A DNA stretch of 64,000 nucleotides from Alphaproteobacteria bacterium (GTDB taxonomy: Bacteria > Pseudomonadota > Alphaproteobacteria > SP197). Location: NCBI GenBank assembly GCA_964291265.2, contig OZ219747.1, positions 448,001 to 512,000 of the forward strand, read 5' to 3'. Made by a program: the position numbers and the translations under genes. Shown here piece after piece: positions 28,964 through 41,684 of the stretch (its first letter is position 1; each line of letters starts with the position of its first letter). A model generated the notes under the pieces. The model had not been told where the DNA came from and did no database searches. It was given only the letters and a program-made list of their open reading frames with translations.

Positions 28964-30493
28964 ATGTTTGCCATGCCCAGGAAGGCAGTGTTCAGGCCCG
29001 TTGATCGCCGCAGGTTTCTGGAACTCGGCGGTGGTGTTGCGACGACGCTCGGCGCCGGATCGATTGCGGTCGGAATGAACTCCATGATCACACGACGCCC
29101 GGTCTACGCGTCGTCCTCGGAAGAGGCCAAGTGGCGCCAGTACGAGGGTTCGAAGCTTGTGTTCATGTCGGAGAACACGCCTCCTTCCTTCGCCATCCGT
29201 GACAACATCAAGGCATTCTACGACCTCACCGGCATCGAGGTGGAGATCCTCACCGACGGATTGCCGACCGTGCAGCAGAAGGTCGGCATCGATCTCAGGA
29301 GCGGCCAGGCCGACTATCACCTGAACTACGTGCAGGACAAGCCGATCGGGTCGCCCTTCGCCGATTTCTACGCCGACCTCAACGAATTCACGGTTGACGA
29401 CACCCTGCCGCTCGATCCCCAGGGCTACGGCAGCGAGGTCTGGTTCGAGAACTATCTCGATGCCTGCGGCGTCTACTACGAACGCGGGCCGATCCGGGCC
29501 TTCCCCTACGACTGCGCGGTCTCATGCACCTTCTACAGGCAGGATCTCTTCGAGAAGCTGTCCAAGGATTTCGAGGCCGACTACGGTTACCGTCTCGAGT
29601 TCACGGACGACACGACCTACGCGAACATGGTCGATTTCGCCGCGTTCTTCAAGATGATGCACGAGCGCGATGCATCCGTTCCCTACGGTTACGCGCAGCA
29701 TCACGGCTCATTCAGCTGGACGACGCAGCTCGATATCCAGCGACATATGTACGCGCAGAACCAGTGGCTCGACTTCGCGGTCGACGACACCCTGGGCTCG
29801 AAGGAACCCGGCCCGACGAACTGGGGTGACGCGCAGTCGGTCAGGTCCATGGAAGGCTACAAGGCGCTTGCCGATGTCAGCCACCCGGACAACCTGACCA
29901 ACGGGACACTGGAGCTGAACACCGTCTACGCCGCCGGCGGCATCGCGATGCAGATCCAGTATCACGAGTTTGCCGCCTCGATCGAGGATCCCGAGCAGTC
30001 CGTCGCCGCTGGCGGCAGGACGGCCTACGCCATGGGGCCGAAGGGTGATCCATCGTGGAACACCGATGGCAGCAGCAATGTGGTCAACGCCACCAACTGC
30101 GGCATCGGCGGCATCGGCATCAACGCCGGCGCATCGATGGACCTGCAGCGTGCGGCGTTCATCTTCGCCAGCTGGGCGTGCAGCCACGACACGCAGCTCA
30201 TGGTGCTGCAGGGCGTCGGCGGCACGCCGACCCGCAGGTCCGTTCTGGACGTGCCCGAGGTCCGGCAGGCCCGCAACCGGCCCACCAGCATGCCGAATGC
30301 CCTGACCTTCGAGGCGGTCTACGACAAGGGCATCCGCTCGCCGAACATGGTGCTCGGACCCAAGTTGCCAAAGGCGAACGAGTACCACGAGATCGTCCGC
30401 ATCGGTACGCAGCAGTGCATCTCGGGCGAGCTTTCGGCCCAGGAAGCCTGTGAGTCCATCAGGGACGAACTCGATTCAATTCACGGAGTCTGA
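28964..30493 (+). CDS. Carbohydrate-type ABC transporter substrate-binding protein, Tat-exported
   Basis: DRRRFLELG twin-arginine signal, SBP_bac-like size, located upstream of two permeases. Confidence 0.85.
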   Translation: MFAMPRKAVFRPVDRRRFLELGGGVATTLGAGSIAVGMNSMITRRPVYASSSEEAKWRQYEGSKLVFMSENTPPSFAIRDNIKAFYDLTGIEVEILTDGLPTVQQKVGIDLRSGQADYHLNYVQDKPIGSPFADFYADLNEFTVDDTLPLDPQGYGSEVWFENYLDACGVYYERGPIRAFPYDCAVSCTFYRQDLFEKLSKDFEADYGYRLEFTDDTTYANMVDFAAFFKMMHERDASVPYGYAQHHGSFSWTTQLDIQRHMYAQNQWLDFAVDDTLGSKEPGPTNWGDAQSVRSMEGYKALADVSHPDNLTNGTLELNTVYAAGGIAMQIQYHEFAASIEDPEQSVAAGGRTAYAMGPKGDPSWNTDGSSNVVNATNCGIGGIGINAGASMDLQRAAFIFASWACSHDTQLMVLQGVGGTPTRRSVLDVPEVRQARNRPTSMPNALTFEAVYDKGIRSPNMVLGPKLPKANEYHEIVRIGTQQCISGELSAQEACESIRDELDSIHGV

Positions 30494-30503
30494 GTGACGT
30501 TCC

Positions 30504-30565
30504 GCACCGACCGCGGTCGGTGCGGCCCGGTGCGTGGTCCCCGGCAGTGCCGCGGGGGACCACGC
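30504..30565 (+). terminator. Two GC-rich intercistronic hairpins after the SBP gene
   Basis: gcaccgaccg/cggtcggtgc and gcgtggtcccc...ggggaccacgc. No U-tract, so more likely mRNA-stabilising. Confidence 0.5.
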
Positions 30566-30584
30566 GCCGTCACCATGGCGAGAC

Positions 30585-31556
30585 ATGCAGATCGACACCT
30601 TGAAGAGTGACGCCGCAGCGGTCCGCGGTGCGCGCACGGTCGAGCGCGTGCCGGAGAGCTTCAACCCGCGTCCGCTGCGCCTTTACCTGCTGTGGCTGAT
30701 GCTGCCGGCGATCCTGTTGCTCGCGGCCATCACGCTCTATCCCTTCTTCTGGCTCATCTTCATGACCCTGCACGAGGTTCAGCTTGCGCCCGGCAAGCCG
30801 GACCTGTGGGTCGGCCTGGACAATTTCGCGCGACTTATCCACGACAAGCAGTTCCTGAACGGGTGGCTCACGCTGTTCAGGTACAGCGCTCTTTGCCTCT
30901 CGGTGGAGATCTGCCTCGGCGTGCTCGTCGCCGTCCTTCTGCACAACAGCCGTTTCGAGAAGATCCTCGTCACCGTTTTCCTGATGCCGATGATGATGGC
31001 ACCGGTGATCGCCGGATTTCTCTACCTGTTCCTCTACAACGGGACGTTCGGCTGGTATTTCTGGCTGTTGCAGAGCATCGGCCTCCTCGAAGGGGGGTCG
31101 ATCCTCGGCAACAAGTCATGGGCCATGTTCGCCATCGTTGCGACCGATGTCTGGCAATGGACGCCGTTGATTGCGCTCATCACGCTTGCCGGCCTCAAGC
31201 GCGTTCCTCAGGACCAGCTCGAGGCCCACATGGTGGACGGCGCCGGCGCCCTGCGCAATTTTGTCAGCGTGGCCCTGCCCAACCTCTACCCTTTCCTGCT
31301 GATCGCGATCCTGCTTCGTTTCATGGACAACTTCAGGTTCATTGACGCCATCCTGATCATGACCGGTGGCGGCCCGGCCAATGCCACCAAGATCCTGCCG
31401 ACGTATCTCTTCGACGTCTCCTTCAAGTACTTCGAGCTCGGACGCGGCGCCGCCGTTGCCTTCACCCTTCTGCTGCTGACGATCATCCTGGGTCTCGTGC
31501 TCACCAAGGTGTTCGAGAGTCCGGGCAGCAAGATTACCTCCGGACAGGGAGACTAG
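30585..31556 (+). CDS. Sugar ABC transporter permease
   Basis: VGLDNF, DVWQWTP and EAA-loop variant EAHMVDGA. Confidence 0.9.
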   Translation: MQIDTLKSDAAAVRGARTVERVPESFNPRPLRLYLLWLMLPAILLLAAITLYPFFWLIFMTLHEVQLAPGKPDLWVGLDNFARLIHDKQFLNGWLTLFRYSALCLSVEICLGVLVAVLLHNSRFEKILVTVFLMPMMMAPVIAGFLYLFLYNGTFGWYFWLLQSIGLLEGGSILGNKSWAMFAIVATDVWQWTPLIALITLAGLKRVPQDQLEAHMVDGAGALRNFVSVALPNLYPFLLIAILLRFMDNFRFIDAILIMTGGGPANATKILPTYLFDVSFKYFELGRGAAVAFTLLLLTIILGLVLTKVFESPGSKITSGQGD

Positions 31557-31560
31557 GCCC

Positions 31561-32439
31561 GTGTCGTCGCGCGAGATCGTCCGCTATCGTTCGCCGATGC
31601 GCAGCGTGGGCCAGGGACTTTCGACCCTGTTCCTGATCGTGTTCCTTGCATGGACCGTGTTGCCGCTCTTCATCATGGTGGTGTCGTCCTTCAAGGATCT
31701 GCTGGATGCGTTCCAGCTGCCCGCGGTCGGCGACTGGGGCGGCGTCGGTGTCATGTTCGATTTCGAACCGACGGGCCGGCACTACGTCGAACTGTTCACC
31801 GAGAAGAGTTTCGGCACCTATCTGCGGAACAGCCTGATCGCATCGCTGGGTTCGGCGGCGGTTTCGGTCGCACTGGGCTCGATGGCGGCCTACGCGCTGT
31901 CTCGGGCCGAGTTCCGGGGCAGGAAAGACCTTCTGTTCTGGATCATCTCGACGCGGATGGCGCCCGTGGTAGCGGTCATGGTGCCGCTCTACGTGATCTT
32001 TCGCTCATCGGGGCTCGTGGGCACGCTGCCCGGTCTCATTCTCGCCTACACCACCTTCAATCTTCCCTTCGCCATCTGGATCCTCAAGGGCTTCTTCGAC
32101 AATGTGCCCTATGCGATCGAGGAGGCTGCTCAGTGTGACGGTTGCAACCGCTGGCAGGCGTTCGGGCTGATCATTCCTCTGGTGGCGCCGGGCATCGGCG
32201 CCTTCATCGTGCTCTGCGTCCTGTTCGGCTGGAACGATTTCCTGTTCGCCTCGATCATCGGATCGGGCGGCGCCAAGACCCTGCCGGTGGCGACCGCCGA
32301 ACTGGTGCAGCCGGTCAAGATCCAGTGGGGCATGATCATGGCCGCCGGAGTCGTCACCACAGTGCCGATGATGTTCCTGGGCCTGTTGATCCGGCGCTAC
32401 CTGGTGGCCGGGCTGACCATGGGCGCGGTCAGGGAGTAG
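31561..32439 (+). CDS. Sugar ABC transporter permease
   Basis: NLPFAIWILKGFF, IEEAAQCDG and GLTMGAVR. Confidence 0.9.
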   Translation: MSSREIVRYRSPMRSVGQGLSTLFLIVFLAWTVLPLFIMVVSSFKDLLDAFQLPAVGDWGGVGVMFDFEPTGRHYVELFTEKSFGTYLRNSLIASLGSAAVSVALGSMAAYALSRAEFRGRKDLLFWIISTRMAPVVAVMVPLYVIFRSSGLVGTLPGLILAYTTFNLPFAIWILKGFFDNVPYAIEEAAQCDGCNRWQAFGLIIPLVAPGIGAFIVLCVLFGWNDFLFASIIGSGGAKTLPVATAELVQPVKIQWGMIMAAGVVTTVPMMFLGLLIRRYLVAGLTMGAVRE

Positions 32440-32480
32440 AAGGCCAGGGGTGTTGTACACATGCCGATCCGGGGGGATTG

Positions 32481-33572
32481 ATGGCTGCAGTGACGATCGC
32501 TGACGTGTGGAAGTACTACGGCAAGACCGTTGCCGTGAAGGAGCTCGATCTCGAGATCCGGGACAACGAGTTCATGTGCATTCTCGGCCCTTCCGGTTGC
32601 GGCAAGTCATCGACGCTGCGCATGCTTGCGGGCCTGGAGTTCATCTCCGCCGGAGACATCTTCTTTGACGACGTCCGCGTGAACGACCTGCCGCCGCGGG
32701 ACCGCGACATCGCGATGGTGTTCGAGAACTACGCCCTCTATCCTCACAAGACGGTGTTCGAGAACATGGCGAACCCGCTGAAACTGAGGCGCACGCCGTC
32801 GGACGAGATCCATCGCCGGGTTCATCGTGCGGCCGAGATCCTCGAGATCACTCCCCTGCTTCAGCGCAAGCCGATGGAGTTGAGCGGCGGGCAGAAACAG
32901 CGCACCGCGATAGGCCGCGCGATCGTGCGCGAACCCAAGGTCTTCCTGTTCGACGAGCCGATTGCGCATCTCGACGCGAAGCTGAGATCCCACATGCGCG
33001 GCGAGCTCAAGCACCTTCAGCGCGACCTCGAGACCACGACCATCTATGTCACCCACGACCAGCTCGAGGGGATGTCGATGGCCGACCGGATTGCCGTGAT
33101 GCACGACGGCGTCCTGCAACAGCTCGGCACGCCCTCGGAGATCTACGACAGTCCATGCAACGAATTCGTCGCGGGCTTTGTCGGCGAACCGCCGATGAAC
33201 TTCCTCGACTGCAGCCTGGAACGGACATCGGATGGACTCTGCGTGGTGCACCGGGGGTTCAGGCTTGTCCTTGGCGAGCACCAGGCGGCGAAGCTCGGCT
33301 CAGTCAGCGACGCCGGCGTGCGCATCGGTATCCGTCCCGACAACATCGCCATCGAACCTGGCGATCAGGGCGCGTTCGACATACCGGGTGTCATCTATGT
33401 CGTCGAGCCGCTCGGTGGCGACATGATCGTCGAGGTCACGGTTGGCGGCGACCGGGTGATGGTGAAGAGCAGGATCGGTCCCATGGGGGGCTCCGGGGAG
33501 CCGTGCCGCATCAGCCTCGCTGTGGACAAGCTGCACATCTTCGACAAGGATACGGGAACCGCCTACCTCTAA
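32481..33572 (+). CDS. MalK/UgpC-like ABC ATP-binding protein
   Basis: GPSGCGKS, LSGGQKQR, FDEP, YVTHDQ and a TOBE-like C-terminus. Confidence 0.93.
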   Translation: MAAVTIADVWKYYGKTVAVKELDLEIRDNEFMCILGPSGCGKSSTLRMLAGLEFISAGDIFFDDVRVNDLPPRDRDIAMVFENYALYPHKTVFENMANPLKLRRTPSDEIHRRVHRAAEILEITPLLQRKPMELSGGQKQRTAIGRAIVREPKVFLFDEPIAHLDAKLRSHMRGELKHLQRDLETTTIYVTHDQLEGMSMADRIAVMHDGVLQQLGTPSEIYDSPCNEFVAGFVGEPPMNFLDCSLERTSDGLCVVHRGFRLVLGEHQAAKLGSVSDAGVRIGIRPDNIAIEPGDQGAFDIPGVIYVVEPLGGDMIVEVTVGGDRVMVKSRIGPMGGSGEPCRISLAVDKLHIFDKDTGTAYL

Positions 33573-33615
33573 ACGACAGGCACCGCATTTCAGGATACGA
33601 CAGGGGAGTCGAATA

Positions 33616-34584
33616 ATGCAGATGAGCAGGGACAGTTTGTTGGCGGCCTACCGCACCATGACCATGATTCGGGCGTTCGAGGAACGCCTTCACGTGGAGT
33701 TCGCGACGGGCGCCATTCCGGGTTTCGTTCATCTCTATGCCGGTGAGGAGGCAAGCGGTGTCGGCGTGTGCATGCATCTCGACGACCGCGACCGCATCGC
33801 CAGCACCCATCGCGGGCACGGGCACTGCATTGCCAAGGGCTGTGACGTGGATGGCATGATGGCGGAGATCTTCGGGCGCCGGGAGGGCCTGTGCGCCGGC
33901 AAAGGAGGCTCCATGCACATCGCCGACCTCGACAAGGGCATGATGGGCGCGAACGGCATCGTCGGCGGTGGCCCGCCGCTTGTCTGCGGCGCGGGGCTGG
34001 CGGCCAAGCAGCTCGGCACGGGCGGCGTCGCTGTCGCCTTTGTCGGCGATGGCGGTTCCAACCAAGGGACGACGTTCGAGAGTCTCAATCTGGCTTCGAT
34101 CTGGAACCTGCCCTGCGTTTTCGTCGTCGAGAACAACGGCTATGCGGAATCGACGTCATCGAAGTGGTCGATTGCCTGCGAGGACGCAGCCGACCGCGCT
34201 GCCGGCTTCAACATGCCGGGCGTGGTGATCGACGGGCATGACTTCTTCGCCGTTCACGAAGCTGCCGGCGAGGCGATCGAACGGGCGCGCAAGGGTGACG
34301 GACCGAGCCTGCTGGAGTGCAAGCTCAATCGCTACTACGGACATTTCGAGGGTGACGCGCAGACGTACCGCGGCCCGGACGAGGTCAAGAGACTGCGCGA
34401 AACGCGGGACTGTCTGCAGCTCTTCAAGGACAGGGTGAATGCCGCGGGACTGCTTGAGCGCGAGGCGCTCGAGGCGCTCGAGGAAGAAGCAAGAACCGCG
34501 GTCGACGGGGCAGTGACGAAGGCCAAGGCAGCGCCCTCGCCAACAGTCGCTGATCTCCTGACCGATGTCTATGTGTCGTACTGA
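33616..34584 (+). CDS. acoA: Acetoin dehydrogenase E1 alpha (TPP-dependent)
   Basis: PGFVHLYAGEEA, STHRGHGH, GDG...ENN TPP motif and YYGHFEGD. Confidence 0.9.
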   Translation: MQMSRDSLLAAYRTMTMIRAFEERLHVEFATGAIPGFVHLYAGEEASGVGVCMHLDDRDRIASTHRGHGHCIAKGCDVDGMMAEIFGRREGLCAGKGGSMHIADLDKGMMGANGIVGGGPPLVCGAGLAAKQLGTGGVAVAFVGDGGSNQGTTFESLNLASIWNLPCVFVVENNGYAESTSSKWSIACEDAADRAAGFNMPGVVIDGHDFFAVHEAAGEAIERARKGDGPSLLECKLNRYYGHFEGDAQTYRGPDEVKRLRETRDCLQLFKDRVNAAGLLEREALEALEEEARTAVDGAVTKAKAAPSPTVADLLTDVYVSY

Positions 34585-34601
34585 TCAGGGGAGTTCGCAA
34601 G

Positions 34602-35612
34602 ATGGCACGCAAAGCAACGTATCAGCAGGCAATCAATGAGGCCCTCGCCCAGGAGATGGAACGTGACGAGACGGTCATCGTCATGGGCGAGGATGTCGCC
34701 GGCGGCGCCGGCACGGATGGCGAGCGCGATGCCTGGGGAGGACCACTCGGCATCACCAAGGGGCTCTACGCCAGGTTCGGCGAACGCGTCATGGACACGC
34801 CGATCAGCGAGTCGGCCTTCATCGGGGCGGCCGTCGGCGCCGCGACCGCGGGGTTGCGTCCGGTGGCCGAGCTCATGTTCATCGACTTCATGGGAGTCTG
34901 CTTCGACCAGATATTCAATCAGGCCGCCAAGTTCCGTTACATGTTTGGCGGCAAGGCGCAAACGCCGGTGGTCATCCGCACCATGTATGGCGCGGGCCTG
35001 CGGGCGGCCGCTCAGCATTCGCAGTGCCTCTACCCGGTCTTCACGCACATACCCGGGCTGAAGGTCGTGACCCCGTCCACTCCCTATGATGCCAAGGGCC
35101 TTCTGATCCAGGCGATCCGCGACAACGATCCGGTGATCTTCTGCGAGCACAAGGCGCTCTACACACTGGAAGGCGATGTTCCCGAAGAACCCTATGCGCT
35201 TCCCTTCGGTGAAGCCGGTATCGTTCGCGAAGGCGGCGACGTCACCATCGTGACTCTCGGGCGCATGGTTCACGTGGCGGTCGAAGCGGCTGGCGCGCTG
35301 GCGAAGGACGGTATCGAGTGCGAGATTGTCGACCTGCGCACGACCTCGCCGCTCGACGAGGACAGCGTCATCGAATCAGTCGAGAACACGGGCCGTCTCG
35401 TGGTCCTCGACGAGGCAACTCCTCGCTGCAACATGGCCACCGACATTGCGGCCCTGGTGAGCGAGCAGGCTTTCGGCGCCCTCAAGGGACCGATCAGGAG
35501 GGTGACGGCGCCACATACGCCGGTGCCCTTTGCCAGCACCCTGGAAGACCTCTACATCCCTGATTCCGCAGCGGTGCAGAAGGCTGTGAAAGCAGCCGTG
35601 GGTGCCTCCTGA
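34602..35612 (+). CDS. acoB: Acetoin dehydrogenase E1 beta
   Basis: DAWGG, DTPISESA, ELMFIDF and AAQHSQ. Confidence 0.9.
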   Translation: MARKATYQQAINEALAQEMERDETVIVMGEDVAGGAGTDGERDAWGGPLGITKGLYARFGERVMDTPISESAFIGAAVGAATAGLRPVAELMFIDFMGVCFDQIFNQAAKFRYMFGGKAQTPVVIRTMYGAGLRAAAQHSQCLYPVFTHIPGLKVVTPSTPYDAKGLLIQAIRDNDPVIFCEHKALYTLEGDVPEEPYALPFGEAGIVREGGDVTIVTLGRMVHVAVEAAGALAKDGIECEIVDLRTTSPLDEDSVIESVENTGRLVVLDEATPRCNMATDIAALVSEQAFGALKGPIRRVTAPHTPVPFASTLEDLYIPDSAAVQKAVKAAVGAS

Positions 35613-36727
35613 TGAGTGAAGGCATACGCTCCATCTGCATGCCCAAGTGGGGCCTTTCCATGAAGGAGGGGAAAGTGGCGGCATGGCTCGTGGAAGAAGG
35701 CCATGCCGTCGCGCCCGGCGACGAGGTCATCGACATCGAGACCGAGAAGATCGCCAGTGCGGTGGAGGCGGTCGACGGCGGCCTATTGCGGCGCCGCGTG
35801 GCGGACGTGGGCGAAGTCCTGCCGGTCGGCGCCCTTCTCGGGATCGTTGCCGACGACAGTGTCGACGATACCGACATTGAGTCCTTCGTCGCCGACTTTC
35901 AGGCGAACTTCGTGCCGCCCGATGATGACGACGAAGAAGAAAGCGGTCCGGCAACCGAGACCGTGGAGGTGGCGGGGCGCACGATCCGCTACCTGACGAG
36001 GGGTGACGGCGGCACACCGGTCATCCTCGTTCATGGATTTGGCGGCGATCTCCACAACTGGCTCTTCAATCATGAGGCGCTTGCCGGGTCGCGCACGGTT
36101 CATGCTCTCGACCTGCCGGGTCATGGCAGTTCCAGCAAGGAGGTCGGCGACGGCTCGATCGGTTTCCTTGCCGACATCGTCCTCGGCTTCGCCGATGCCC
36201 TCGGAATCGACAGGGCACATCTTGTCGGCCACTCGATGGGCGGCGCCGTTTCGCTTGCCTGCGCACGGTCGGCGCCGCAGCGTGTGGCATCGCTTACCCT
36301 GATCGCAAGCGCCGGTCTCGGCAGGGAGATCGACGGGGACTACCTCGACGGCTTCATCTCCGCCGAACGCCGCAGGGACCTCAAGCCTCATGTCGAAAAG
36401 CTGTTCAGTGATCCAGCGCTCGTGACGAGGCAGATCGTCGACGATCTGCTTGCCTTCAAGCGGATCGACGGCGTGACCGCGGCGCTCGGCACGATCAGGG
36501 ACGCCCTTGCGCCGGGTGGCGAGCAGGCCGAGATCATGCGCGAGGTGGCAGGCAGCGTGCCGACTCTCGTCATCTGGGGGTCCGAGGACCGGATCATTCC
36601 CGCATCCCACGCGCATGGCCTGGCGAACGGCGTGTCCTCGACAGTGCTCGACGGTCAGGGTCACATGGTGCAGATGGAAGCTGCAACCGACGTCAACCGT
36701 CTGGTCGCGGACCACGTGGGCGCCTGA
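35612..36727 (+). CDS. acoC: AcoC: lipoyl domain fused to an alpha/beta-hydrolase domain
   Basis: MPKWGLSM, ETEKI lipoyl Lys, HGFGGD, GHSMGG and GHMVQME. Confidence 0.88.
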   Translation: MSEGIRSICMPKWGLSMKEGKVAAWLVEEGHAVAPGDEVIDIETEKIASAVEAVDGGLLRRRVADVGEVLPVGALLGIVADDSVDDTDIESFVADFQANFVPPDDDDEEESGPATETVEVAGRTIRYLTRGDGGTPVILVHGFGGDLHNWLFNHEALAGSRTVHALDLPGHGSSSKEVGDGSIGFLADIVLGFADALGIDRAHLVGHSMGGAVSLACARSAPQRVASLTLIASAGLGREIDGDYLDGFISAERRRDLKPHVEKLFSDPALVTRQIVDDLLAFKRIDGVTAALGTIRDALAPGGEQAEIMREVAGSVPTLVIWGSEDRIIPASHAHGLANGVSSTVLDGQGHMVQMEAATDVNRLVADHVGA

Positions 36728-36943
36728 CGCCGGGACAGGCGTATTCCGCACGACGCTGCGGCGCCGGGACCTCTCACCGGCTTAGCACCGGAACACGGTT
36801 GCGCGAGATCGGTTCGTTCGACGACATCGGCCACGCCGGGGCCTTGAGGTTTCGCACGGGGACTGTTCAGGAGGGCGGTCATAAAGGGGTTCGACGATCT
36901 TGCCCGCTGCATTGCGTTGCCGGAGTCGTCCTGCTCGTTCTCC

Positions 36944-38719
36944 GTCGGGTAGGCCACTGGCGCGCGCATCCGTAGGCAGAGGCTTTGTCCGTCACCGCTC
37001 TTTCGATTGCGGGCGGGGTCGCAGTTCTCCCATAGACCACGTTTCCAGCAGTCGGGTAGGCCGCTGGCGCGCGCATCCGTAGGCAGAGGCTTTGTCCGGC
37101 ACCGCTCTTTCGATTGCGGGCGGGGTCGCAGAACTACCATAGACCACGTTTCCAGCAGCCTCCCTAAAATTCCGTACGTCCGGTTTTCCCGGGTACGGCT
37201 TCAAGCATCAGGCACCCACTTGGAGTTCGGTGCGGAGCCTTCCGCCGAACACGCCATGGTCAAGGCTGACCCGACCATACCCACGGCATCTCCGAGCGTT
37301 TGCTCCGTCCTTCGACCTTGCAGTCTGTCGGTCGGTGCCGGTCTCTGAGTACCGACTTGACCTGCCGCATAAGCCACCTGAGCCCTGAGGTCCTCGCTCA
37401 GGACGGGTTGTGTTGTCCCGCCCGTCAACGCTTACTCGACCTCATCCGCCAGTCAGGAGGACTCCGCGTCCTTTCCCAGTCCTGGTTATAGACGCGGTCC
37501 TTGACATTCAAGGGTCACTTCATCCTGTCTGTCCTCCTCACCTTCCGGCCTTTCACTGCTGTACTGTCCCGGATTGCCGTCGTCTCTACCACGGGGAACC
37601 CGATGCGTGCTCCCCAGTTCTTCCGCATCGACTCTGGCCACCAAGCTGGGGGCAGGCCCTTGGCGTTCCCAACACCCCACAAGTCAGCTTCATGTGGGAA
37701 ATTTCATTTTCGAGGCTTCGTACAATCGTTCGCTTTCGCTACGGCCCTCCGGTTCGCTCGCCGCCCTGGCTGACCAGACCAACTGGACACTGCGTTCCAG
37801 CCAGCCCACAGCGGCTTCTACATCCCAGCTCGCTGGCCCAGGGTCACCCCTGTACCAGTGGGATATGCTACGGCGCCAAACTGGGAATTGCGCCGGCGGG
37901 ACTTTCACCCGCAAGTACAGCAGCTAGACTCGCTGCACGCCCCCCTAAAATTCCGTACGTCCGGTTTTCCCGGGTACGGCTTCAAGCATCAGGCACCCAC
38001 TTGGAGTTCGGTGCGGAGCCTTCCGCCGGACACGCCATGGTCAAAGCTGACCCATCCATACCCACGGCATCTCCTTGCGTTTGCTCCGTCCTTCGACCTT
38101 GCAGTCTGTCGGTCGGTGCCGGTCTCTGAGTACCGACTTGACCTGCCGCATAGGCCACCTGAGCCCTGAGGTCCTCGCTCGGGACGGGTTGTGTTGTCCC
38201 GCCCGTCAACGCTTACTCGACCTCATCCGCCAGTCAGGAGGACTCCGCGTCCTTTCCCAATCCTGGTTATAGACGCGGTCCTTGACATTCAAGGGTCACT
38301 TCATCCTGTCTGTCCTCCTCACCTTCCGGCCTTTCACTGCTGTACTGTCCCGGATTGCCGCCGTCTGTACCCTGGGGAACCCGATGCGTGCTCATCAGTT
38401 CTTCCGCATCGACTCTGGCCATCGGGCCGGATCCACGCCCTTGGCATTCCCGACCACCCCACAAATCAGCTTCGTGTGGGAGCATCATTTCGTGGCTTCA
38501 TCCAATCGTTCGCTTTCGCTACGGCCCTCCGGTTTGCTCGCCGCCCTGGCTGACCGAACCGGTTGGGCACTGTGTCCCAGCCAGCCCACAACGGCTTTCT
38601 ACGTCCCAGCTCGCTGGTCCAAGGTCGCCCCTGAACCAGTGGGATATGCTACGGCGCCAAACTGACAATTGCGCCGGCGGGACTTTCACCCGCAAGTACA
38701 GCAGCTAGACTCGCTGCAC
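36944..38719 (-). ncRNA. ORF-less group II intron, outer member of a twintron (888 nt net)
   Basis: 5' GUGCAGCGAG at 38719, DV GAAGCCGUACCCGGGAAAACCGGACGUACGGAAUU at about 37949-37983, DVI at 36944-37050 with bulged A and ...ACCCGAC end. EBS1/EBS2 are complementary to its 5' exon. Confidence 0.9.
37051..37938 (-). ncRNA. ORF-less group II intron, inner member (888 nt), inserted in DVI of the outer intron
   Basis: Complete from GUGCAGCGAG (37938) through DV (about 37168-37202) to ACCCGAC (37051). EBS1 GCCCCC matches the flanking GGGGGC. No RT ORF. Confidence 0.92.
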
Positions 38720-39084
38720 GGATCCCGATGCTTGGCTGTCCGAGGAATTCGCCGCTCTCATCTTCGAAGGCTCGTGGCGCATGGGGTGTGACGGTAGAAC
38801 TCCGAACGGAGTCGGGATCGGGCGAAGTCGCCCTGCACACCCCATCGCCTGATACGTCGGCGTCACAAGGGAATGGAGCCGTCGCGGCGATTGATCGAGA
38901 CCACCGGTCCGCGATCTTCGAGCGCGTTCCGCGTTGTCGGCCGATCACAGAGGTAACAGAACGCGTCGTGGAGTGCAGAATCTTGGACTGTGGCCATCCT
39001 CGTTCTTCCGCAACCGGAACGTTGCGGCGTGGACATCCGTCATACAATCGGTCTACATTGTGGCCCAATCAGGAGGATCGACCC

Positions 39085-39342
39085 GTGCGCACCGTCGTTC
39101 GGGCCCGCATCGACGAAAGCACCAAGCGGGAAGCCGCCGCCGTACTCGACGCGATCGGCCTCACCGTGTCCGATGCCTTCCGCCTGATGATGGTGCGGAT
39201 CGCGGCCGAGAAACGCCTGCCCTTCGAGCCCCTGGTGCCGAACGCGGAGACTATCGCGGCCATGGAGGCCGCGCGGCGGGGCGACTTGGTCACGGTCGGC
39301 GATGTCGACGGCCTGATGGCCGACCTCCATGCGGACGATTAG
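39085..39342 (+). CDS. dinJ: RelB/DinJ-family antitoxin
   Basis: VVRARIDE..K.EAAAVL.AIGLTVSDAFRLMM.RIA.EK.LPFEPLVPNAETIAAM. RBS aggagg. Confidence 0.9.
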   Translation: MRTVVRARIDESTKREAAAVLDAIGLTVSDAFRLMMVRIAAEKRLPFEPLVPNAETIAAMEAARRGDLVTVGDVDGLMADLHADD

Positions 39343-39343
39343 A

Positions 39344-39728
39344 CCGAAGTTCCGGACGATTTCAGCGGTATAACCACACCAAGTAGTTGATCTTGCTGAT
39401 AAAATGGCACAGAGACAGCACGCAAGTGTTCCCATGTAACGGTGAAGAACTCTTGTGACACATAAGGCCTTTTCCCCATATACGTTGCCATGTACGGGGA
39501 CATAGCCCCCAACCGCATGAGGCCCTCGCCAACAATCTCTCCTCCTGGCCCATGGAGAAGGTCGAAACCCTGCGGCCCTTCCAGGTCACCATGCGACCCA
39601 CGACGCTCCGGAAAAAGGCCCTGAACCACCTCGACGTACGCCTGTAGCGTTCCCAGTAACGTCACACCCGATTATCTCAAACATCAATACATTCATAATG
39701 ATACGTCTGATCGGTGCTGGAACTTCGG
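39344..39728 (+). mobile_element. MITE (internally deleted IS1634 relative), 385 bp
   Basis: IS1634 TIRs and the same deletion junction as 8407-8793. Flanked by attaga. Confidence 0.9.
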
Positions 39729-39734
39729 ATTAGA

Positions 39735-41684
39735 CCGAAGTTCCGGACGATTTCAGCGGCAGAGTCACGATAACCGGTTGATTGTGTTGGCAAAATAGCG
39801 CGATGACGGCGCGAGAATGTTCCCATGTAACGGCGAAGTTTTCCCTTGACACGGTGGGCTTACGCCCCCATATACGTTGCCATGTACGTAGACATCGTCC
39901 CCAACCGTAACTCACCCCCCGCCGTCCTCCTGCGAGAGGGATGGCGCGAGAACGGCAAGGTCAAGAAGCGCACCATCGCCAATCTCTCCTCCTGGCCCAT
40001 GGAAAAGGTCGAGACCCTGCGGCGGTTCTTGAAGAACGAACCCCTCGTCGGTCGTGACGACGCCTTCGACATCGTCCGCTCCCTACCCCATGGGCATGTC
40101 GCCGCAGTGCTGGGAACCCTGAAGAAGCTGGGACTGGACAGGCTGATCGACCCGAAGCCCTCGCCTGAGCGCGATCAGGTCCTGGCCATGATCGTGGCAC
40201 GCATCCTCGAGCCCGCCTCGAAGCTGGCCACGGCCAGGGGGCTGGCCGAGGCCACGGCGGTCAGCACCCTGGGCGAGGTCCTCGATGCGGAGATGGACGA
40301 GGACGCCCTCTACGGCGCCATGGACTGGCTCCTGGAGCGTCAGGAGAGGATCGAGCGGTCCCTGGCGAAGCGGCACCTCGAAGAGGGCTGCCTGGTGCTC
40401 TATGACCTGACCTCGGTATGGATGGAGGGGAGAGCGTGTCCCCTGGCAAGGAGGGGTCATTCCCGGGATGGCAAGAAGGGCAAGCTGCAGATCGAGTTCG
40501 GCCTTCTGTGCGATCGGGACGGCTGTCCAGTGTCGGTGGAAGTGTTCCCCGGCAACACGGCGGACCCCGGGACGGTGGCATCACAGATCACCACGCTGCA
40601 GGAGCGCTTCTCCCTGGCGAAGGTGGTGCTGGTGGGAGACCGGGGGATGCTGACCGAGGCGCGCATACGCGAGGAGGTGAAGCCTGCGGGCCTGGACTGG
40701 ATCAGCGCCTTGAGGGGACCGGCCATCCGCGCCCTTGTGGAGGCCGGCGACGTCGAGATGTCGCTCTTCGACGAGAGGGACCTGGTGGAGATCACCAGCG
40801 ATGCGTATCCCGGCGAACGCCTCATGGTCTGCCGCAACCCCCTGCTGGCCGAGGACCGGGCCCGCAAGCGCCAGGAACTGCTCGAGGCCACCGAGGCCCT
40901 GCTTGAACCGATCGCCGCAGCGACACGGCGCGACAAGCGCCGTCTCAAGGGTGCCGACAAGATCGGGGAGCGGGTCGGCAAGGTCATCGGTAAATACAAG
41001 ATGGCGAAGCACTTCACGTGGTCCATCGACGACGAGGGTGTCTTCACCTATGGGCGCGATGAGGTTGCCATCGCCGCCGAGGCCAGGCTCGACGGCCTCT
41101 ACGTGATCCGCACCAGCCTGCCGCAGAGCGAGCTCGACGGTCCCGGCACAGTGCGCGCCTACAAGCGGTTGAGTTCGGTGGAACGGGCCTTCCGCAGCCT
41201 GAAGACCGTGGATCTGAAGGTCCGTCCCGTCTACCACCGCACCGAACCCCGGGTCCGCGCCCATGTCTTCCTGTGCATGCTCGCCTACTACGTGGAATGG
41301 CACATGCGCCAGAAACTGAAGCCCATGCTGTTCGACGACGAGGATGCCGAAGGCGCCGAGGCCCGGCGGCCGTCCGTCGTGGCGCCGGCAGAAGTCTCGG
41401 CGAGCGCCCGGGCCAAGGCGGCAACGAAGAGGACGCCCGGGGGTGATCCGGTGCACAGTTTCCGCACCCTCCTCGATGATCTCGCGACCATCACCCGCAA
41501 CACCGTGGCGCCCCGCCTTGCGGGCGCCAAACCCTTCCAGGTCACCACGCGGCCCACGCCGCTCCGGAAAAAGGCCCTGGACTACCTCGGCATACGCCTG
41601 CAGCATTCCCAGTAGCGACACACCCGATTTTTTCAAACGTCAATACATTCATAACGATACGTCTGATCGGTTCTGGAACTTCGG
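39735..41684 (+). mobile_element. IS1634-family element, intact copy, 1950 bp
   Basis: TIRs CCGAAGTTCC/GGAACTTCGG. attaga at 39729-39734 and 41685-41690. Confidence 0.93.
39882..41615 (+). CDS. IS1634-family transposase, 577 aa
   Basis: LYDLTS, GHSRDGK, VGDRGML, YKRLSSVERAFRSLK and RVRAHVFLCMLAYY. Confidence 0.93.
   Translation: MYVDIVPNRNSPPAVLLREGWRENGKVKKRTIANLSSWPMEKVETLRRFLKNEPLVGRDDAFDIVRSLPHGHVAAVLGTLKKLGLDRLIDPKPSPERDQVLAMIVARILEPASKLATARGLAEATAVSTLGEVLDAEMDEDALYGAMDWLLERQERIERSLAKRHLEEGCLVLYDLTSVWMEGRACPLARRGHSRDGKKGKLQIEFGLLCDRDGCPVSVEVFPGNTADPGTVASQITTLQERFSLAKVVLVGDRGMLTEARIREEVKPAGLDWISALRGPAIRALVEAGDVEMSLFDERDLVEITSDAYPGERLMVCRNPLLAEDRARKRQELLEATEALLEPIAAATRRDKRRLKGADKIGERVGKVIGKYKMAKHFTWSIDDEGVFTYGRDEVAIAAEARLDGLYVIRTSLPQSELDGPGTVRAYKRLSSVERAFRSLKTVDLKVRPVYHRTEPRVRAHVFLCMLAYYVEWHMRQKLKPMLFDDEDAEGAEARRPSVVAPAEVSASARAKAATKRTPGGDPVHSFRTLLDDLATITRNTVAPRLAGAKPFQVTTRPTPLRKKALDYLGIRLQHSQ

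Follow-up and report, generated by a model that had tools for sequence, protein, structure and literature searches.

The 64,000-nt stretch of alphaproteobacterial DNA analysed here (the window; contig OZ219747.1, positions 448,001 to 512,000) contains a true twintron, in which a group II intron (B) without any gene for a reverse transcriptase (RT) is nested in the domain VI (DVI) helix of a closely similar intron (A) that also lacks one. The exon-binding (EBS) loops of B are complementary to the DV/VI stem of A, so it is likely that B is a parasite which retrohomes into its sibling, with nascent lagging strands as the predicted primers and an RT supplied in trans, probably by a third intron, R. 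A preliminary description of this DNA had reported the nested pair; it had not recognised that the genome holds six copies of it, that B behaves as a dedicated parasite of A's DVI, or that no closely related RT intron is present in the genome.

All parts of the twintron lie on the minus strand, at the coordinates first proposed for them. The 5' part of A (nt 1-781, comprising DI to DV and the first strand of the DVI basal stem) occupies 37939-38719 and stops at GGAATTTTAGGGGGGC, where B begins. B is complete at 888 nt (37051-37938), runs from GTGCAGCGAG to CCTACCCGAC and has no RT open reading frame. The remaining 107 nt of A (36944-37050), assigned from sequence and folds, contain the rest of an extended DVI and also end in CCTACCCGAC. 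A complete intron is thus nested precisely in another, which is restored once the inner one is removed: A without B is 888 nt long and 93% identical to B. The two introns differ in 47 of 402 aligned columns in nt 1-400, 10 of 381 in nt 401-781 and 5 of 107 in DVI. Since 47 of the 62 differing columns fall within the first 400 nt, the early impression of very similar copies differing mostly in DI was correct. Both DI halves match the Rfam D1-D4 model RF02003 above its cut-off of 49 bits (66.7 bits at 38514-38695 for A, 68 bits at 37734-37914 for B), and the fold of B has z = -3.99 against 20 shuffles. No RT remnant was found in A or B (best E 0.05), and a promoter scan gave nothing on the intron strand. 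The twintron is intergenic, between an E2/hydrolase gene (35612-36727, plus strand) and a RelB antitoxin gene (about 39085-39342, plus strand). Positions 28964-36727 carry ABC sugar-type transporter genes and, after them, an operon for an acetoin/2-oxoacid dehydrogenase (E1a, E1b, E2-hydrolase).

Domain V folds into a non-canonical hairpin with an AGC triad, an AC bulge, a GAAAA loop of 5 nt and an extra unpaired AA in the lower stem; its sequence is the same in A (37946-37984) and B (37165-37203). In both folds the hairpin is followed by a DVI whose bulged A, the predicted branch point, stands 7 nt from the intron end (36950 in A, 37057 in B). DVI of A is a long helix, and B is inserted 4 base pairs above the bulged A. 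Of the GUGYG...AY rule, the 3' end, AC, fits the AY; the 5' end is GUGCA, or GUACA in some members, and is conserved in the family. The Rfam check proposed in the preliminary description succeeded with RF02003 and failed with the standard domain V model RF00029, which did not match A or B even at E ≤ 5. In a genome search RF00029 gave no match at the twintron loci, and its 16 matches all belong to M-type elements, which are derived from intron R.

The target-recognition loops of each intron fit its own flanks. EBS1 (GGAUCC, 38429-38434) and EBS2 (GAUGCU, 38481-38486) of A pair with IBS1 (38720-38725) and IBS2 (38727-38732) in a 5' flank of the form IBS2-G-IBS1 (38720-38732), and EBS3 (C, 38367) pairs with the first 3'-exon base, G at 36943. 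For B, EBS1 (GCCCCC, 37648-37653) pairs with the strand GGGGGC of A's DVI (37939-37944), the EBS2 loop (37698-37706) pairs with the 3' strand of A's DV (37946-37954) in a run of 7 pairs, and EBS3 (G, 37586) meets U at 37050. All six strings were found where they had been placed earlier, and of the two EBS3 pairs then suggested, that of A is Watson-Crick and that of B holds only as a G-U wobble. It had also been asked whether the proposed strings fall in loops when folded; in the fold of B, EBS1 lies in a terminal loop and EBS2 in a single-stranded loop. A consensus fold of 15 sequences agrees with that of B and has two-sided changes in 72 of 238 pairs. With EBS1, EBS2 and EBS3 complementary to their own flanks, exon recognition is that of subgroup IIB. 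The EBS2a-IBS2a pairing mentioned in PMC8643678 showed no consistent register by eye and is not claimed. EBS1 of B is mismatched to the corresponding GGAGGC of B's own DVI (-6.2 kcal/mol, vs. -12.5 kcal/mol for GGGGGC of A), and this single G-to-A difference likely keeps B out of itself.

Searching the genome for further 888-nt copies, as had been suggested, yielded six A(781)-B(888)-A(107) twintrons on contig C2 (T1, which is that of the window, T2, T3a, T3b, T4 and T5) and a seventh A without B (A7). B is identical in all six, always lies within A's DVI helix, and has no full copy elsewhere. In A7 a 1.96-kb insertion sequence sits 20 nt further into DVI. The DDE transposase insertion sequence found directly 3' of the RelB gene in the window (39345-41640) is the element that splits A7's DVI, where 5-6 nt are duplicated; it is present many times in the genome. 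T1-T4 and A7 share EBS1 GGAUCC, EBS2 GAUGCU and EBS3 C and their flanks fit; the T4 flank is mismatched at one EBS1 position and pairs weakly with EBS2. T5 (C2:1366526-1368300) has a third specificity (EBS1 CGUGAC, EBS2 GACGCU, EBS3 G) matching its own flanks, AGCGTT-CG-GTCACG on the 5' side and C on the 3' side; from its GTAAGCG terminus we take this target to be an IS66-type end. EBS-flank complementarity therefore holds for three specificities within one genome. Compared with T2, T5 differs at 36 of 400 positions in DI and at none of the 488 that follow. This mosaic shows that recombination among A copies is real, and it could also homogenise B.

T3a and T3b (C2:3769211-3772762) are complete twintrons, head to tail and antisense in one ISAs1-like transposase target. 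The upstream flank of T3b is the end of T3a and offers no EBS1 pairing (1 of 6). The EBS3 C of A could equally pair with the G that begins every family member, which would permit head-to-tail stacking, and the T3b flank is consistent with A having homed again, into its own 5' junction. The insertion boundaries are defined by unoccupied alleles of the T3/A7, T4 and T5 targets. A 5'-truncated A 3' end of 68 nt (C2:3544651-3544718) sits exactly at a T5-type target, the pattern expected if reverse transcription was aborted. Further family remnants on C2 lie at 417017-417092, 3580494-3580663, 3261256-3261485, 1767668-1767898 and 710192-710235; together with the 68-nt piece the remnants include two 5'-truncated ends, a 170-nt element that has both its ends, and further fragments.

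The six outer A copies have accumulated 12 difference events outside the DI of T5, and the six B copies none (binomial p = 2e-4). In the tree the A of the window is sister to the B-less A7 (support 99/90). Because B is uniform while A has diverged, and because T1 groups with A7, the spread of A most likely preceded the entry of B into its copies.

The filling of these targets depends on their orientation to replication, with origin and terminus placed from skew only (722 kb and 3.29 Mb by GC skew, 830 kb and 3.27 Mb by KOPS). The B target pattern occurs at 8 sites genome-wide, all in DV-DVI of family members. All six on the predicted lagging-strand template are filled and neither of the two on the other strand, which are A7 and a decayed fragment (Fisher p = 0.036). 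B's own DVI lies on the favoured strand in all six copies and is never filled; one IBS1 base differs there. For the A target pattern, which excludes the T4 site, 3 of 3 favoured sites are filled and 1 of 9 others (p = 0.018); these tests comprise only 8 and 12 sites, with target patterns drawn from filled sites. The eight exact empty alleles of the ISAs1-like transposase target of T3 are all on the disfavoured strand, and of five empty alleles of the T4 target three are disfavoured and two lie near the origin or terminus. Many T5-type targets, on either strand, are unoccupied, so this specificity is not saturating. The same bias is seen for R and M, with 25 of 29 starts on the favoured strand, two not, and two ambiguous near origin or terminus. 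A preference for the lagging-strand template marks retrohoming without endonuclease in RmInt1-type introns (PMC4615759). The filling of B sites has the pattern expected for such retrohoming, in small numbers and with a skew-based origin and terminus. Together with the precise insertions at sites with empty alleles and the 68-nt truncated copy at its exact target, the bias supports the earlier suggestion that both introns arrived by reverse splicing.

The preliminary description had also proposed an RT acting in trans. Neither intron has an RT remnant, so an RT in trans is required for their mobility; the acting RT is a candidate only, with R as its probable source. Intron R is an RT intron of 1919 nt that matches RF02005 and is present in 16 copies (e.g. 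C2:2231020-2232938). Intron M comprises about 16 ORF-less 660-nt derivatives of R (e.g. C2:857514-858173), and most copies of either kind occupy one of two sites in a single repeated IS66-like element. A genome search with PF00078 gave 18 matches: 16 near-identical full-length R RTs, one R fragment and one truncated RT of another type. Fourteen of the RTs in R copies are identical, and R is therefore in a recent burst. Its protein has an RVT_1 match, a weak sub-threshold GIIM match and no endonuclease match. R matches RF02005 and not RF02003, the model matched by A and B, and no DNA similarity between R and A/B was found (best E 0.08).

No intact RT intron related to A/B was found in the genome. 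As a cognate RT the search offered only the truncated other-type RT at C2:1340063-1340563 (46% to an RF02003-type RT), which we rejected. It belongs to a truncated RT intron (C2:1339361-1340570) that interrupts an R fragment in its 5' part, and the RNA of this intron fragment matches neither RF02003 nor A/B. R is thus the only helper candidate on hand, and its help would have to cross intron classes; the trans-acting intron-encoded proteins (IEPs) reported as tested in PMC2882425 came from close relatives. RT introns matching RF02003 are present in the genus, none of them intact in this genome, and A/B resemble one of them at 74% over 70 nt in DV-DVI (E 2e-5). Among 23 family-bearing genomes, intact R-like RTs (at least 63% identity) occur in at least 12 and near-full RF02003-type RTs in at least 9, and one has neither type among the matches listed. 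At 19 of 52 genome loci of the family, a match to an R-like RT (55-82% identity) starts within 400 nt downstream.

The lineage of A and B is widespread, carries no genes and goes undetected by the standard model RF00029. B matches DNA in 8 of 22 other genomes of the genus and in none of 38 further relatives. A DV pattern search found 52 loci in named genome records (Paracoccaceae, Thalassobaculaceae, Rhodospirillaceae, Binatia and others); the DV letters are fixed by the pattern, and their conservation is therefore no independent evidence. Full-length members measure 839-904 nt. No member with an RT gene of its own was found among these 52 genome loci and at least 120 metagenome loci. Where the upstream DNA was long enough, a DIII profile built from family members placed the DIII end at 141-202 nt from DV in all 48 genome loci and at 137-197 nt in 90 of the 98 metagenome loci; the other eight, without a DIII match, contain no open frame longer than 146 aa there. 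At no family locus does an RT match end within 400 nt upstream of DV. The locus L064 carries a 1.4-kb insert with a 344-aa ORF, presumably transposase-like, that has no RT match. The search for an RT-encoding relative suggested earlier was thus negative within the sampled family loci and positive for RF02003-type RT introns in the genus. A distant blastn search of a plasmid collection with B and a search of viral contigs with two DV patterns returned no matches. Zimmerly and Semper (PMC4424553) acknowledged that introns lacking an ORF might have gone unnoticed if their DV was unusual. A later survey (PMC8919778) relied on RF00029 and for this reason probably missed the A/B family.

The co-variation of EBS loops with flanks, first noted for two introns, extends across the family. 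Excluding 13 partial, interrupted or duplicate loci left 48 elements with 35 distinct combinations of EBS and target, from which 15 rows were retained, one per EBS1 type and without T3b. The mean number of EBS1 pairs was 5.87 of 6 (3.22 when shuffled), the mean EBS2 run 5.73 (3.81 shuffled), and EBS3 was Watson-Crick with the 3' flank in 12 of 15 types (5.0 shuffled). None of 5000 shuffles reached the observed EBS1, EBS2 or EBS3 value; as the rows are related by descent, these figures should not be taken as strict probabilities. Among all 35 combinations, EBS1 pairs at 6 of 6 positions in 31 and EBS3 is Watson-Crick in 30.

A second twintron with its inner intron at the same DVI position was found at locus L046 (OZ219893.1). 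Here the inner intron groups with its outer partner (100/99), outside the A/B clade (100/100), so DVI became a target on two separate occasions. The inner EBS2 fits the DV strand of its host, and EBS3 is mismatched. The inner EBS1 pairs slightly better with its own DVI (-10.3) than with that of the host (-9.4). This, and the frequency across the family of the same stem A that distinguishes B's DVI from A's, speaks against self-avoidance as a general rule. The L046 twintron itself lies within a canonical RF02003-type intron, making a triple nest. Kin are also nested in kin at DI (nt 194) and DIV (nt 582) in two genomes (G068 and G072); the sibling nests at these positions are L130 (G068), L131, L139 and L144 (G072), L055 and L080, where remnants are also found in collapsed or repeated form. 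No DV-to-start junction of a DVI twintron turned up in a metagenome scan, and DVI twintrons of this family are thus demonstrated in two genomes only. In one sequencing run (X3), loose ends at window positions 37464, 38245 and 38199 join R/M-start-like and IS66-end-like sequence to family sequence, which suggests that R-type introns also enter A/B in that sample.

We propose that A homes B-free into its targets, namely an ISAs1-like transposase gene (antisense), a repeated gene, IS66 ends and intergenic DNA, and that B would then fill each A on the favourable strand. Nascent lagging strands are predicted to serve as primers, with RT probably supplied in trans by the 16-copy, endonuclease-less R. 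With B in place A's branch helix is divided, and the strand needed to form it is also the pairing partner of B's EBS1; B would therefore have to splice out first, before A. An A released without B would offer B a fresh target.

These steps are read from sequence, and other histories have to be weighed. B may have entered A once, after which the 1776-nt composite moved as a unit with B looped out of DVI, and recombination or gene conversion kept B uniform. Composite mobility is named as a possibility by Mohr et al. (PMC2882425); B is present in every one of the six A copies on the favoured strand, the tandem pair among them, and the body of T5 equals that of T2 over 488 nt in spite of their DI differences. 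The absence of any change in B against 12 events in an equal length of A, and the sister relation of T1 to the B-less A7, nevertheless make this history improbable. EBS1 of B would also compete for A's DVI strand in a composite, and the minimum-energy fold of A DV, B and the A 3' part formed no A branch helix, a weak argument. A DNA duplication or an artefact of repeat assembly is scarcely credible. The 5' parts of A and B are 93% direct repeats, and no public contig spans the whole twintron, including those in four contig sets of one sequencing study. Both junctions, however, are exact intron ends, the EBS loops of B match the site, six copies have distinct flanks, and L046 has the same architecture independently, which answers the worry about misassembly raised earlier. 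Moreover, a 742-nt contig of run X4 (window 37162-37942) joins an A-type DVI strand to the start of B. That contig leads from a B-like body including the B EBS1 region through this strand to the B start, and can be read as a recombinant, as B-in-B nesting or as a collapsed path.

Another account differs from sequential homing driven by R in the helper only: the RT would be of the cognate class, now lost, unassembled or carried by a passing mobile element. The truncated RT on C2 and the resemblance of A/B to RF02003-type introns of the same genus favour it, as does the normal co-evolution of intron RNA and IEP (PMC3753933). It appears rather unlikely given that the B copies are identical and R itself is in a recent burst, that the assembly consists of two contigs and is 100% complete, that the RNA of the truncated fragment matches neither RF02003 nor A/B, and that family members elsewhere often lie within R-like introns. 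Sequential homing of B into A, with R as the probable helper, is the explanation we prefer. More tentatively, A and B may represent an old, widespread class of RT-less introns, missed by reason of an altered DV, that hijacks RTs of other classes and repeatedly buds hyperparasites targeting siblings in DI, DIV and DVI. If so, bacterial retroelements would include a SINE-like layer with its whole specificity in three RNA loops. If the RT of R serves A and B, one protein would act across ribozyme classes, which would bear on the origin of the common splicing apparatus and on the rule of RNA-IEP co-evolution. The genome is a natural test set, in which three specificities share an 888-nt scaffold, targets on either strand occur both filled and empty, and host and self differ by one base.

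In the open-access literature we found no description of a DVI-homing or a non-autonomous, RT-less lineage of bacterial introns; several known systems share single features with A/B. Group IIE/IIF introns (PMC3753933) are IIB-like and have the same DV loop length of 5 nt (GAAAA in A/B). They are quoted at 450-700 nt, while A/B reach 888 nt without an ORF, start with GUGCA, have a DV undetected by RF00029 and lack an IEP for the class. EBS2 is dispensable for splicing in IIE/IIF ribozymes (Nagy et al. 2013, PMC3753933), so its co-variation in the A/B family points to selection on DNA targeting. RmInt1 and RmInt2 of Sinorhizobium (PMC4615759) share the lagging-strand-template bias and the IS targets, and RmInt2 forms head-to-tail copies through EBS3 pairing with the first G of the intron, as in T3a-T3b; they encode their own RT, which A/B do not. 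Inner-first splicing has been demonstrated for the Trichodesmium twintron T.e.I7/I8 (PMC4649490), which consists of two distant RT introns with the inner one in DI, in contrast to siblings nested in DVI. The lycophyte cox1i1149g2, described as 'invading itself' (PMC7049729), is nested kin-in-kin like B in A, but it is organellar and its inner copy is dysfunctional. The nested introns of Methanosarcina acetivorans (Dai and Zimmerly 2003, cited in PMC4424553 and PMC2882425) likewise home repeatedly into related introns as a perpetual target; their targets are the ORFs of these introns, whereas that of B is the DVI of an ORF-less sibling.

The nearest parallel is Thermosynechococcus elongatus, in which Mohr, Ghanem and Lambowitz (2010; PMC2882425) described TeI3 (F3) inside TeI4 (F1) and TeI3h. 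The preliminary description had rated ORF-less paralogues with diverged EBS and an RT in trans too highly as a novelty; these were already described and tested in that work. Both systems have ORF-less introns in EBS-defined families, identical inner copies in diverged outer introns and an RT acting in trans, and T. elongatus includes one ORF-less-in-ORF-less case, TeI3i in TeI3h. A/B thus works like a twintron of the TeI3/TeI4 type without being a member of it. The site in T. elongatus is in DIV at RT start codons and the driving IEP comes from the parent intron, while B enters the branch helix in DVI of a genome with no related RT intron; all six B copies have ORF-less hosts. The branch-helix site, the ORF-less sibling as host and the absence of a related RT from the genome are therefore what the A/B twintron adds to this kind.
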